A stretch of 64,000 nt of DNA from a virus (Duplodnaviria > Heunggongvirae > Uroviricota > Caudoviricetes): IMG/VR virus record IMGVR_UViG_2939521961_000018, one strand, 5' to 3'. Shown here in pieces: positions 46,549-51,351 of the stretch. Position numbers and translations under genes: made by a program. Within the stretch, counting starts at the first letter, position 1, and each line of letters starts with the position of its first letter. The notes beneath the pieces were generated by a model that saw only the letters and a program-made list of their open reading frames with translations, was not told where the DNA came from and searched no databases.

Positions 46549-46768
46549 CCAGGAGTAATCAATGGAAAACGAACTGATCATCGACGGTCAGGTTATTGAC
46601 CTGTCTGAAACACAGGAAAATGCAGAAGAAACCATCATCCAAACAGAGTCACAGCCTGAGAATGAAAGCCAGGATGACAACGGAAAAGAGATGGCAACTG
46701 ATCCTGAAAAAACCGAAGAGACACCTGAGGTGTACTGGCAATAGCGGACACTACCATTTGTTCTTTTT

Positions 46769-47587
46769 TTAAGCAGCCATCTGATGATATTTTTCCCTGA
46801 AGGCTGCCGGGGAGATATTCCCCAGACGAGAGTGACGACGCTGACGATTGTAGAAAATCTCAATGTATTCCCGTATTACTGAGATGGCTTCATCCCGGTT
46901 ATTAAAACGATAGTGGCTCAGGCTCTCATTTTTCAGCGTTCCCCAGAAGCTTTCCATCGGAGCGTTGTCGTAACAGTTACCTTTACGCGACATTGATGTT
47001 TTCAGACCAAACTGCTCCTGTATGACCCGGTAATCGTATGCGCAGTACTGTGAACCTCGATCAGAGTGGTGGATTAGCCCGGCAGGTGGGCGCTGGCTCC
47101 TGAGCGCCATAAACAGAGCTTTACCTGTCAGCTCTTTTGTCATGCGCTCTCCCATGGCGTAGCCGACAATTTCGCACGTATAAACATCTTTGATGCCAGC
47201 GAGGTACAACCATCCCTCCTGTGTGGCAACATACGTCAGGTCCGCCACCCAGACCTGATTTGGTGCTGTAGGAGCGAACGTCTGGTTCAGCAGATTTGGC
47301 GCAACTGGCAGATTGTGGTTCGAGTTCGTAGTCGCTCTGAACTTGCGTTTCTGCTTACAGCGTAGCCTTAGCTCCTTACGAAGACGTGCCAGTCGGTCAC
47401 GACCAACGATGATGCCATTCTCTGCCAGCTCCGTCTGGAGCCGCCGGGTTCCATATGTTTCGCGAGTGCGGATATGTGCCACCTTAATCTCCAGTTTTAG
47501 CCGCTCATCACTTTGTTTTCTGTCTGAGGGTTCATGCTGTACCCAGTTGTAATAACCGCTCCTGGATACACCAAATACCTGACACAT
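46769..47587 (-). CDS. IS600 OrfB
   Basis: Identical protein to 3198-4016. Confidence 0.9.
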   Translation of the reverse strand: MCQVFGVSRSGYYNWVQHEPSDRKQSDERLKLEIKVAHIRTRETYGTRRLQTELAENGIIVGRDRLARLRKELRLRCKQKRKFRATTNSNHNLPVAPNLLNQTFAPTAPNQVWVADLTYVATQEGWLYLAGIKDVYTCEIVGYAMGERMTKELTGKALFMALRSQRPPAGLIHHSDRGSQYCAYDYRVIQEQFGLKTSMSRKGNCYDNAPMESFWGTLKNESLSHYRFNNRDEAISVIREYIEIFYNRQRRHSRLGNISPAAFREKYHQMAA

Positions 47588-47622
47588 CGCTTCAATGGGA
47601 AATTGTTGTCGCCATTGTTCGA

Positions 47623-47925
47623 TTAACGCGTATTTTTCAGCGACTCCTGTGCAAAATACGCTGTTGCTTTTTTTAATATATCTCGCTCAAGGCGAGCTTC
47701 ATTTAACGCCTTACGCAGTTGCAGAATTTCAGATTCCAGTTCAGCCACCGTGCGGGAACCAGGAGTACCGAGCCCTTTTCTGGCGGCGGTAACCCATTGT
47801 CCTAAAGTGCCTTCAGGAAGAGATAATCGGGAAGCGCCTTCACTGATCGAAAGTTGATTTTCAAGAACCGTTCTGACAGCTTCGGCTTTGAACTCTTTAG
47901 AGTAACGTTGGGTTTTTCTGCTCAT
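47623..47925 (-). CDS. IS600 OrfA
   Basis: Identical protein to 2860-3162. Confidence 0.9.
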   Translation of the reverse strand: MSRKTQRYSKEFKAEAVRTVLENQLSISEGASRLSLPEGTLGQWVTAARKGLGTPGSRTVAELESEILQLRKALNEARLERDILKKATAYFAQESLKNTR

Positions 47926-48850
47926 TATTAGCTCCTTCTGATGCCATTCTATTTCAGGAAGGAGTGTCCGTTAAACTCAGGCTACCTCAACCAGAAGATT
48001 ACGCCTTGCGTATTGGTGATGAAGAAATTCAGCTTAACGCTGACGATAATGATCACATTGACGGGCAACCTGCACCGCAATGGGTGAAAGATCTTCGCAA
48101 AGGCTTCAAAGAAACACAGAAAGAAAACCGTGAGTTGCGACGCCAGCTTGAGGAAGCATTAGCCAAGCATGCGGAACATCAGCAACCACAACCAGACGCT
48201 ATTCCACCAAAACCGACTCTTGAGTCGTGTGATTATGACGAACAGGCGTTTGAACAGGCATTGACTGATTGGCATGAGAAAAAAGGCCGTGTCGAACAGC
48301 AGCAGCAACAAAAACTACGTCAGCAACAGGAATACCAGCAGCGTTTCCAGCAAAGGGTAGAAGCGCATAAACAACGGGCAGCCAAACTTCCTGTGAAAGA
48401 TTATCAGGAAATGGAAGCCATTGTTCTTAGTGAGCTACCACCAATTCAGCAGGAAATCATCATTCACTGTGCAGACGAAGGCTCTGAACTACTCGCCTAT
48501 GGCTTAGGTAAGAGCCAGCAATTACGCCAGCGTGTAGCCGCTGAGACAGATCCAATTCGCGCAGCATTCCTCTTGGGGCAGATTAGCAAACAGGTAAGCC
48601 TTGCTCCAAAACCAAAGAAAGCCATCAAGCCAGAGCCGGAAGTACGTGGTGGCGGTGCTGATGCGAAACAAGACGAATTCAACAAATTATGCCCCGGCGC
48701 AAAAATCGAATAAGGAAAAGATAAATGCCTAACAATCTCGACAGTAACGTCAGTCAAATCGTTCTGAAAAAATTCCTTCCGGGTTTTATGTCAGATTGAA
48801 CCGCCCCGGAAATCCTGGAGACTAAACTCCCTGAGAAAGAGGTAAACAGG

Positions 48851-49177
48851 ATGACTAAAAATACTCGTTTTTCCCCCGAAGTCCGTCAGCGGGCGATTCG
48901 TATGGTTCTGGAAAGTCAGGATGAATATGACTCACAGTGGGCGGCAATTTGTTCCATTGCCCCAAAGATTGGCTGTACGCCGGAGACTCTGCGTGTCTGG
49001 GTTCGCCAGCATGAGCGGGATACCGGGGGCGGTGATGGTGGGCTCACCAGTGCTGAACGTCAGCGTCTGAAAGAGCTGGAACGTGAAAATCGTGAACTGC
49101 GCCGCAGTAACGATATCCTTCGCCAGGCTTCCGCTTATTTTGCGAAGGCGGAGTTCGACCGCCTCTGGAAAAAATGA
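48851..49177 (+). CDS. IS629 OrfA
   Basis: [42 protein letters not shown]. Confidence 0.9.
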
Positions 49178-50064
49178 TGCCACTGCTGGATAAGCTGCGT
49201 GAGCAGTACGGGGTCGGACCGGTATGCAGCGAACTGCATATTGCCCCGTCAACGTATTACCATTGTCAGCAACAGCGACATCATCCGGATAAACGCAGTG
49301 CCCGTGCGCAGCACGATGACTGGCTGAAGAAAGAGATACAGCGCGTATACGATGAAAATCACCAGGTATACGGTGTGCGTAAAGTCTGGCGTCAGTTGTT
49401 ACGGGAAGGTATCAGAGTGGCCAGATGCACTGTGGCACGTCTCATGGCAGTTATGGGACTTGCCGGTGTTCTCCGGGGTAAAAAGGTCCGCACTACCGTC
49501 AGCCGGAAAGCCGTTGCCGCATGCGACCGCGTAAACCGTCAGTTCGTGGCAGAACGTCCAGACCAGTTGTGGGTGGCTGATTTTACCTGGGTAAGCACAT
49601 GGCAGGGCTTCGTTTATGTGGCGTTCATCATTGATGTGTTCGCCGGATACATCGTGGGATGGCAGGTCTCATCATCCATGGAAACAACATTCGTGCTGGA
49701 TGCACTGGAGCAGGCGTTGTGGGCCCGTCGGCCGTCCGGCACAATCCATCACAGTGATAAAGGTTCTCAGTATGTATCGCTGGCCTACACGCAGCGGCTT
49801 AAGGAAGCCGGATTACTGGCATCAACAGGGAGTACTGGCGACTCGTATGACAACGCGATGGCTGAGAGCATCAATGGTCTTTACAAAGCGGAGGTAATAC
49901 ACCGTAATAGCTGGAAAAACCGGACAGAAGTGGAACTGGCCACACTAACGTGGGTGGACTGGTATAACAATCGACGATTGCTGGAAAGGCTGGGCCATAT
50001 TCCTCCGGCAGAAGCAGAAAAAGCTTATTATGCTTCCATCGGAAATAATGATCTGGCAGCCTGA
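49174..50064 (+). CDS. IS629 OrfB transposase
   Basis: DDE core [23 protein letters not shown]. Confidence 0.9.
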
Positions 50065-51351
50065 GTTCACAGATAAAATACTCTCCAGGAAACCCGGGGC
50101 GGTTCAGATTTAGTTCTGGCGAAAACCGTAGACCGTCAGTTGCTGGCAGGTGAAATCAACTCCAGCACTGGCGATAGCGTTAGCTTTAAACGTCCGCATC
50201 AATTCTCATCCCTCCGTACTCCCACTGGTGATATTTCAGGGCAAAATAAAAACAACCTGATCTCAGGTAAAGCTACGGGGCGTGTAGGTAACTACATCAC
50301 TGTTGCTGTTGAATATCAGCAACTGGAGGAAGCGATCAAGCTTAACCAGCTGGAAGAAATTCTCGCGCCGGTTCGCCAGCGAATCGTTACCGACCTTGAA
50401 ACAGAGCTTGCTCACTTCATGATGAATAACGGTGCGTTGTCACTTGGTAGCCCCAATACTCCAATCACCAAATGGTCTGATGTTGCGCAGACGGCATCTT
50501 TCCTGAAAGACCTCGGCGTTAATGAAGGTGAAAACTATGCTGTAATGGATCCATGGTCTGCACAGCGACTTGCTGATGCGCAGACTGGTTTGCATGCTTC
50601 AGATCAATTGGTTCGTACTGCATGGGAGAACGCACAGATCCCAACCAATTTTGGCGGCATTCGCGCACTGATGTCTAATGGGCTTGCCTCTCGTACGCAG
50701 GGGGCATTTGGCGGAACACTGACAGTCAAAACACAGCCAACTGTTACCTATAACGCAGTTAAAGACTCATACCAGTTCACTGTAACATTGACCGGAGCGA
50801 CAGCCAGCGTTACAGGTTTTCTGAAAGCTGGTGATCAGGTCAAATTCACCAATACCTACTGGCTGCAACAGCAGACCAAACAGGCGTTGTATAACGGAGC
50901 CACACCAATTAGCTTCACTGCAACGGTTACTGCTGATGCTAATTCAGACAGCAGTGGCGATGTGACGGTTACGCTTTCTGGTGTTCCGATTTATGACACT
51001 ACAAACCCGCAGTACAACTCTGTAAGTCGTCAGGTAGAGGCAGGCGATGCCGTATCTGTAGTAGGCACTGCTAGCCAGACAATGAAGCCAAACCTGTTCT
51101 ATAACAAGTTCTTCTGTGGACTTGGATCTATCCCACTGCCGAAACTGCACAGTATTGATTCTGCTGTTGCAACATATGAAGGTTTCTCCATCCGCGTACA
51201 TAAATACGCAGATGGCGATGCCAACGTGCAAAAAATGCGCTTCGACTTACTGCCTGCATATGTGTGCTTTAACCCACACATGGGCGGTCAGTTCTTCGGT
51301 AATCCGTAATAACAAGGGGCTTACGCCCCTTTTATGTTTTAAGGAAACAAT

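Follow-up and report, generated by a model that had tools for sequence, protein, structure and literature searches.

The prophage and its described relatives

The closest described systems to the locus analyzed here are the P22-like phages Sf6 and HK620, the prophages located at argW in E. coli O26:H11 strains, and the IS629 and IS600 polymorphisms of STEC. Sf6 is itself interrupted by an insertion sequence, IS911 in ninG. In O26:H11, iee is present and both IS629 and IS600 are amplified, and IEE causes simple excision of IS elements as well as flanking deletions; in O121:H19, IEE-driven excision of IS600 restores lacZ (PMC9397093). IEE has also been found in O26:H11 genomes; in vitro it shows microhomology-mediated end joining, and excision that depends on it leaves deletions ranging from a few nucleotides upward (PMC9943667).

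The window, a stretch of 64,000 nucleotides, contains the remainder of an Sf6/HK620-like (P22-like, Lederbergvirus-type) prophage on the plus strand at positions 26888-64000, with intS cut by the window end. Its genes are arranged in the order kil, cIII, N, cI, cro, cII, O, P, nin genes, Q, lysis genes, terS, terL, portal, scaffold, coat, gp4, gp10, gp26, gp14, gp7, gp20, gp16, tailspike, acyltransferase and intS. The assignment as P22-like is supported by P22-type terminase, portal, scaffold and coat genes, gp4/10/26/14/7/20/16 and a tailspike in canonical order. Gene order from terS to tailspike, a late-region DNA identity of 95-97%, and an IntS-type integrase are shared with Sf6 and HK620, and the 100%-identical prophage of relatives adjoins the tRNA-Arg gene argW, which lies outside the window here. 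In contrast to these phages, the present element is a chromosomal remnant whose tailspike body and acyltransferase moron are different, with a deleted left arm and two interrupted structural genes.

Sf6 is the nearest named phage only. On the sequence, the host is best assigned to E. coli of the O26:H11 lineage (source CP027572.1), and is not necessarily Shigella. The argW prophages of O26:H11 strains, including 11368, 02E060, 6817 and others, are 100% identical to the prophage over about 37 kb save the two IS elements and one base, and with the rebuilt genes the identity is 100% in the O26:H11 strains 11368, RM10386, FWSEC0001 and H19. These prophages differ from the window in having intact scaffold and coat genes and in keeping torI and the ea genes, while their left arm already carries IS600 copies. 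The most detailed comparison is with the 02E060 prophage, which is located at argW and annotated without pseudogenes: across window positions 26951-64000, the two IS elements aside, a single intergenic base differs. One nucleotide is deleted from the hairpin and ribosome-binding region immediately 5′ of the holin start. The repressor, lysis and moron genes, which the initial annotation had considered intact, are so at the level of their coding sequences by this comparison, which likewise agrees with its view that no further head gene is disrupted and extends it to the tail genes. No direct match came from a literature search on this O26 prophage, and a search by strain names returned nothing useful.

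Two insertions in the capsid genes

The scaffold gene is split by an IS600 element of the IS3 family (46726-47989, 1264 bp), which lies on the minus strand, antisense to the phage late operon. The element ends in TGAGGTGTACTGG... and ...CCTCA (reverse complement TGAGGTAGCCTGAG...), imperfect terminal inverted repeats that start with TGAGG, and is flanked by an ACC target-site duplication with its left copy at 46723-46725 and its right copy at 47990-47992. The length of about 1264 bp, the inverted repeats and the 3-bp duplication that define IS600 are thus all found at 46726-47989. By Pfam, orfA (47925-47623, minus strand, 100 aa) contains HTH_Tnp_1 and orfB (47587-46769, minus strand, 272 aa) contains HTH_21 and the DDE domain rve. 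The element is 100% identical to two further copies within the window, and identical copies elsewhere are labelled by PGAP as 'IS3-like element IS600 family transposase' with a programmed frameshift. The 5′ fragment of the scaffold gene (46562-46725, plus strand) reads into IS600, giving a fusion ORF at 46562-46744 of 60 aa that consists of 56 native residues followed by VYWQ and a stop. The 3′ fragment (47990-48713, plus strand) holds native codons 56-294 and is entered in frame by a 249-aa ORF that begins at a GTG (47964) within the end of IS600. Codon 55/56 of the scaffold gene is the site of IS600 transposition, and the insertion is a simple one in a gene that is otherwise unmutated, with boundaries and flanks that agree to the base with those initially proposed.

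The coat gene is split by an IS629-type element (IS3 family, IS629/IS1203 isoform group; 48797-50106, 1310 bp), which lies on the plus strand in the orientation of the late operon. It begins with TGAACCGCCCCGG... and ends with ...CCGGGGCGGTTCA, with inverted arms of 41 nt, and is flanked by a GAT target-site duplication at 48794-48796 and 50107-50109. Besides the 1310-bp length and inverted repeats, the features expected of IS629 include orfA (48851-49177) and orfB (49174-50064), both on the plus strand and recognized by Pfam as HTH_Tnp_1 and rve, and an ALIL pseudoknot, the frameshift stimulator of IS3-family transposases, at 49132-49248 on the plus strand (Rfam RF01497, 121.5 bits). In a comparison among annotated copies, it shares 98.7% identity with a chromosomal copy from O157:H7 and about 96% with copies labelled as IS629-family or IS1203-family; copies identical to it carry only the PGAP label 'IS3 family transposase'. 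The IS629 of the initial annotation is retained as an IS629/IS1203-type isoform. The 5′ fragment of the coat gene (48725-48796, plus strand) comprises 24 codons and is closed by a TGA that the element's first bases supply, while the 3′ fragment (50107-51309, plus strand) holds native codons 25-423 and includes a mechanically called, TTG-initiated ORF of 389 aa (50140-51309). Codon 24/25 of the coat gene is the transposition site of the IS629-type element, again a simple insertion in an otherwise unmutated gene. The terminator hairpin that follows the coat gene, t-coat of Sf6 and HK620, is retained at 51314-51331 on the plus strand.

Removal in silico of each element with one copy of its repeat restores both reading frames at the lengths first predicted and reveals no additional frameshift or stop. 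The rebuilt scaffold gene (46562-46725 joined to 47993-48713) is 885 nt long and encodes 294 aa, and the rebuilt coat gene (48725-48796 joined to 50110-51309) is 1272 nt long and encodes 423 aa, each with one terminal stop. In the comparison with Sf6 that had been suggested, the scaffold matches gp4 at 290 of 294 residues (99%) and the coat matches gp5 at 99.8% with 423/423 aa aligned, in keeping with the coat length of Sf6. Pfam identifies P22_CoatProtein over residues 4-421 of the coat and Phage-scaffold in the scaffold. At the DNA level the rebuilt genes align gap-free and at 100% identity with the unbroken copies in E. coli 02E060 and in over 50 further listed genomes, O26:H11 strain 11368 among them.

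As only 24 codons of the coat gene precede the element, whose TGA follows at once, the conclusion that capsid formation is lost is soundly drawn from gene structure. By analogy with P22 biology, the coat would be reduced to a 24-residue stub, and what is left downstream would have neither the N-arm nor any evident ribosome-binding site, so that procapsids would be unable to form in this prophage. An N-truncated coat from the TTG-initiated ORF or a C-terminal scaffold fragment from the GTG-initiated ORF could in principle be produced. When the region was scanned for promoters and terminators, promoter-like sites were not in excess, and none was convincing as an outward promoter that could serve the gene remnants.

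The left-arm deletion and the distribution of the insertions

The prophage was initially described as disabled by two clean IS insertions. Both are indeed clean, but they are not the only lesions, as the left arm is deleted as well. A further IS600 copy (25624-26887, minus strand) has no target duplication, being flanked by CCA and TAT, and joins the truncated integrase pseudogene of a neighbouring island directly to the phage gene-30/kil region. About 7 kb kept in relatives is missing here, including the rest of the island integrase pseudogene, the island/prophage junction, torI/xis, the ea genes and abc2. This IS600 copy thus marks what appears to be the loss of the left arm by a one-sided deletion. 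Excision competence calls for both attachment junctions together with int and xis; int is present, cut by the window end, and between the island and kil the 64-kb window has neither torI/xis nor the left junction, which could lie elsewhere in the genome. The attL-side site is expected at the missing island/prophage junction, and its sequence was not itself located. With torI/xis and the attL side gone, neither excision nor viable progeny would be expected even with intact capsid genes, and the prophage would be locked in the chromosome whatever their state.

Recombination between two direct IS600 copies was considered as the cause of the deletion and rejected, since the copies are opposite in orientation. 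Also counting against it, the right junction of the deletion is displaced outward by 63 bp relative to 02E060, and strain 12689 has an IS600 in its island integrase that is 257 bp away from the junction in the window. The truncation is not shared with 02E060, as was considered, because both 02E060 and 6817 keep torI and the ea genes. A query with the right junction returned only look-alikes of 98-99% identity at chromosomal positions distant from the scaffold/coat module.

Among 5,426 complete E. coli genomes, none has both elements in place when the whole 4.7-kb region is used as query, and neither junction alone is present when junction-specific 400-bp queries are used. An apparent match in E2865 was rejected, being another IS629 insertion some 490 bp distant. 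The 60-aa fusion ORF of scaffold and IS600 recurs in at least 24 independent public contigs; the nine short-read contigs that were checked all end 28-29 nt inside IS600, and an intact 423-aa coat is present in 9 of the 11 contigs that start inside the right end of IS600. A look-up of the 389-aa coat remnant found no other carrier of the IS629-type insertion and turned up frameshift alleles. These patterns suggest that the scaffold IS600 was inherited by a clade in which the coat is still intact in the majority of members, and that the IS629-type element probably inserted later, in a sub-branch of that clade.

Two short-read de Bruijn assemblies, which could reflect mixed populations, carry small indels exactly at the IS629 site. 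SRR25582041 has the scaffold IS600 and a 5-bp deletion at this site, and SRR7664273 has one additional T; both are otherwise 100% identical. SRR7664273 has no IS600 in the scaffold gene, a misfit with any single simple order of events. The +1 and -5 bp indels are best read as candidate scars of the IEE or microhomology end-joining type, consistent with imprecise IEE-type excision. Together with the one-sided flanking deletion and the clean, gene-inactivating insertions with 3-bp duplications by the same IS3-family elements, they resemble the IS629 and IS600 polymorphism and excision described for STEC (PMC9397093, PMC9943667). The case differs from IS600 in lacZ of O121:H19 in that the targets are prophage capsid genes, known from sequence alone.

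Decay, selection or switch

Taken together, the data very probably describe a P22-like (Sf6/HK620-type) prophage in an O26:H11-lineage chromosome that is being eroded by lineage-amplified IS3-family elements, a neutral decay of an already defective element in which the insertions would bring no gain of function. It is very unlikely that the two insertions were instead the primary events disabling an otherwise functional, inducible prophage. Such an order would fit scaffold and coat genes free of any other mutation, and the fact that the late, lysis, replication and immunity genes otherwise equal those of an annotated pseudogene-free prophage; it is opposed by the loss of torI/xis and the attL side, with an IS600 lacking a target duplication in their place, by the state of relatives that keep the left arm, where it is already full of IS600 copies and pseudogenes, and by the lack in those relatives of erf/ssb-type recombination genes beside kil. 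An assembly artefact, in which IS copies were misplaced into the prophage, deserves hardly any credence: three 100% identical IS600 copies within 64 kb do create a situation prone to misassembly, but perfect 3-bp duplications and exact frame restoration are found for both elements, and short-read contigs assembled independently from many runs break off at one and the same IS600 junction, from either side.

Selection rather than drift could have favoured capsid inactivation, with the host keeping immunity, exclusion and O-antigen-modifying morons while making no particles. At least six independent IS insertions are known in the 2.17 kb of scaffold and coat across O26 strains, among them separate insertions in E2865, 2009C_3996, 10153 and SRR3181800, and in complete genomes the density of about 1.4 per kb in these genes exceeds that upstream (at least about 0.6 per kb) and downstream (0.14 per kb). 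By rough arithmetic on small numbers, however, 3 events are observed against about 1.2 expected (Poisson P ~0.1), and neighbouring late genes of O26 strains, the portal, terminase and lysis region included, are hit as well. Moreover, most members of the scaffold-IS600 clade still have an intact coat, and loss of the coat leaves lysis on induction possible, so that a benefit is not apparent; selection is therefore quite unlikely. A reversible switch, with capsids conditionally off until precise excision of IS600 and IS629 restores both genes in an iee-positive host, is highly improbable. The clean insertions, the intact transposase frames with their frameshift signals, the lacZ precedent in O121:H19 (PMC9397093) and the indels suggesting that excision occurs at the IS629 site would all suit a switch, yet both candidate products are frameshifts that leave the gene broken, precise excision would have to take place twice independently, and capsids restored beside a deleted left arm would still yield no viable phage. 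A broader proposal, unlikely in our view, would make TCAGAT in the coat gene a recurrent entry and exit point of IS629, with the +1 and -5 indels of other O26 isolates as natural footprints of IEE end joining by microhomology, and would ascribe the repeated IS hits on scaffold and coat to selection for silenced particle production in a domesticated prophage kept for immunity and O-antigen-modifying morons.

The insertions are real and far beyond chance, but they are routine prophage decay by known elements showing known behaviour, and they leave the understanding of IS elements and P22-like phages unchanged. With no capsid genes, xis or left junction, the prophage would not be a source of infectious or transducing particles, and the P22-like prophage of this O26:H11-lineage strain is to be scored as defective, a value that is mainly bookkeeping. 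The candidate scars at the IS629 site are a modest illustration, from natural isolates, of imprecise IS excision as described in iee-positive STEC, and the scaffold IS600 insertion is usable as a clade marker in strain typing.

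Boundaries and identity of the two insertions

The late genes of the prophage hold two IS3-family units, evident in the ORF list and the raw sequence as a minus-strand ORF pair of 100 and 272 aa and a plus-strand pair of 108 and 296 aa. The first element, IS600, occupies 46726-47989 (1264 bp), with ends TGAGGTGTACTGG... and ...CCTCA and ACC on either side, and the second, of the IS629 type, occupies 48797-50106 (1310 bp), with inverted-repeat ends TGAACCGCCCCGG... and ...CCGGGGCGGTTCA and GAT on either side. At these boundaries the initial annotation, in which IS600 splits the scaffolding gene with an ACC duplication and IS629 splits the coat gene with a GAT duplication, is confirmed as written. 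In-silico excision of each element with one repeat, followed by translation, yields a scaffold gene of 885 nt and a coat gene of 1272 nt, which encode the anticipated 294 and 423 aa and each have their sole stop at the end. The rebuilt coat aligns with the Sf6 coat protein gp5 over all 423 residues at 99.8% identity, in agreement with the Sf6 coat length given for it in the initial annotation, and is covered end to end by Pfam P22_CoatProtein, while the rebuilt scaffold is identical to the Sf6 scaffold gp4 at 290 of 294 positions. The rebuilt DNA also matches the intact genes of E. coli 02E060 at 100% without gaps, as it does (at 100%) in more than 50 other listed genomes, including O26:H11 11368, RM10386, FWSEC0001 and H19.

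The window has two further IS600 copies (2796-4059 and 25624-26887), both 100% identical to the one in the scaffold gene, and copies identical to it in other genomes are annotated 'IS3-like element IS600 family transposase, programmed frameshift'. The ORFs of the second element carry the Pfam domains HTH_Tnp_1 and rve, and an ALIL frameshift pseudoknot lies inside it. As PGAP calls identical copies merely 'IS3 family transposase', and as identity is 98.7% to an O157:H7 chromosomal copy and about 96% to copies labelled IS629-family or IS1203-family, sequence similarity identifies it as an apparent IS629-type element, named at the level of the IS629/IS1203 isoform group.

Prophage setting and loss of the left arm

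The window corresponds exactly to a segment of GCA_003018515.1 (CP027572.1), with O26:H11-lineage STEC as its closest relatives, and the prophage is of the Sf6/HK620-like type (late region 95-97% identical). In relatives the prophage ends at intS adjoining tRNA-Arg and yfdC; the window stops within intS. Over 26951-64000, the only differences from the annotated, pseudogene-free prophage of 02E060 are the two IS and a single base, so the coding sequences for the repressor, replication, Q, lysis, terminase, portal, head-completion, injection, tailspike and acyltransferase functions are intact, which upholds the earlier view that the repressor, lysis and moron genes are undamaged. The single base is lost at about 39557 from a G-run (ATGAAGATG, 39545-39571) that is G4 in the window and G5 in HK620 and 02E060 and belongs to the hairpin/ribosome-binding region immediately preceding the holin dual start. 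The G4 run sits in a CCCC-TTCT-GGGG hairpin and leaves the holin coding sequence unaltered; holin/antiholin translation might be affected.

The IS600 copy at 25624-26887 lacks a target duplication (left flank CCA, right flank TAT). In the flanks examined (25367-26950), its left neighbour is the truncated integrase pseudogene of an island with Ag43 and YeeU-type genes, and to its right phage sequence begins in the gene 30/kil region, at Sf6 position 22801. E. coli strains 6817 and 12689 retain about 7 kb there, comprising the rest of the integrase pseudogene, the xis-type torI, several ea genes and abc2, with additional pseudogenes and two IS600 copies in 6817; for 02E060, the extent of the match to the window points to the same arrangement. 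In the window, all of these (torI, ea genes, abc2, remaining integrase pseudogene) are absent from the stretch separating the island from kil. As orientation and both junctions differ, recombination between the IS600 copies of those other strains was rejected as the source of the loss; compared with 02E060, the window has 63 bp of additional phage DNA at the kil-side junction and carries IS600 in the opposite orientation. The simplest reading is a one-sided deletion beside IS600, and deletions flanking IS600 are a type of event attributed in these lineages to IEE, a mediator of IS excision (PMC9397093; PMC9943667). At 100% identity the IS600/kil junction occurs in none of the complete genomes searched. 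Strains 10159 and 6883 have a 98-99% junction at a chromosomal position megabases from the scaffold/coat module; this may be a spot where IS600 has inserted, or through which it has recombined, more than once. Whatever the origin of the deletion, xis and the left junction are missing from their place, so the prophage could not excise whether or not it had capsid genes. The proposal that two IS insertions disabled the prophage thus holds for the insertions themselves but only in part for the cause, as the left arm is also gone.

The CP4-44-like island at 1-25623 is in tandem with the prophage, adjoins the csc sucrose genes in relatives and encodes a YeeU-family antitoxin, an antirestriction protein, an Ag43/Cah autotransporter, a 786-aa HsdR-N-domain protein and an integrase pseudogene. 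The IS600 copy at 2796-4059, flanked by a GAG duplication, separates the island's DUF932 and Ag43 genes and is absent from 6817 and 12689. At 14200-17953, an IS66-family ISCro1 unit (tnpA, tnpB and a 523-aa transposase) abuts a truncated ISEc22-like transposase pseudogene, both named from the annotation of identical sequence in 6817.

Consequences for the prophage

Two clean transpositions and one IS-associated left-arm loss are directly established. Translation of the coat would run for 24 codons to a TGA formed by the IS629 end, and a 389-aa ORF starting at TTG would represent a coat remnant without the N-arm; a promoter scan of the region found no promoter-like site ahead of it. Capsids should therefore not form. 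A C-terminal scaffold fragment from a GTG within the IS600 end is conceivable and would be irrelevant without coat. With the replication and lysis genes undamaged, induction could still lead to in-place replication and lysis. The insertions are real and were described with precision, but the case is ordinary, consisting of known IS elements in known genes of a known phage type.

Distribution, age and possible excision scars

Neither the scaffold/IS600 nor the coat/IS629 junction was found in 5,426 complete E. coli genomes. A 60-aa scaffold::IS600 fusion ORF is present on at least 24 public contigs, mostly short-read assemblies, and all nine that were checked end 28-29 nt into IS600; the insertion has therefore been inherited by a clade, making its junction a mildly interesting clade marker. 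At the other IS600 end, 11 contigs start 29 nt inside the element, nine of them with an intact 423-aa coat. Among these 11, sequencing run SRR25582041 has a 5-bp deletion of TGTCA (window 48789-48793; contig ~825-840) exactly at the IS629 site in otherwise identical surroundings, and SRR3181800 carries a second IS600 copy, near codon 86 of the coat gene. In SRR7664273 the scaffold gene is intact and one extra T lies at the IS629 site (ATGT|TCAGAT, contig ~2960-2975), the sequence being otherwise identical over 7.2 kb. IS600 was probably the earlier insertion, followed by IS629 in a sub-branch, and at least one sister lineage has probably since lost IS629 imprecisely. SRR7664273 falls outside any single simple order and needs either independent use of the site or precise loss of IS600.

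Both frameshift indels, the added T and the lost TGTCA, are candidate scars of imprecise IS629 excision, the other mildly interesting feature of the locus. Each is derivable from the IS629-bearing allele by IS removal with 1-nt microhomology at the joint, and they therefore fit IEE-dependent excision, which leaves deletions from a few nucleotides upward (PMC9943667).

With SRR3181800, three O26-lineage strains make four further independent insertions elsewhere in the scaffold and coat genes: E2865 has IS629 midway through the coat gene, 2009C_3996 has IS629 near scaffold codon 219, and 10153 has IS600 close to the 3′ end of the coat gene. The 7.0 kb upstream, from holin to portal, carries an IS in seven of 60 listed genomes (at least four distinct events), and the 7.4 kb downstream in one genome. 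IS density is highest in scaffold/coat, on tiny numbers (by rough arithmetic, three observed against ~1.2 expected, P ~0.1). The pattern resembles indiscriminate IS insertion into a prophage in decay rather than a targeted process, in a lineage known for IS3-family expansion. In ERR2019999 and ERR2019996 the coat gene is likewise split near its 5′ end, by an A4-to-A3 change located 16 bp downstream from where IS629 inserted; the change could be a genuine mutation or an error in sequencing, and ERR2019999 has a split gp10 as well.
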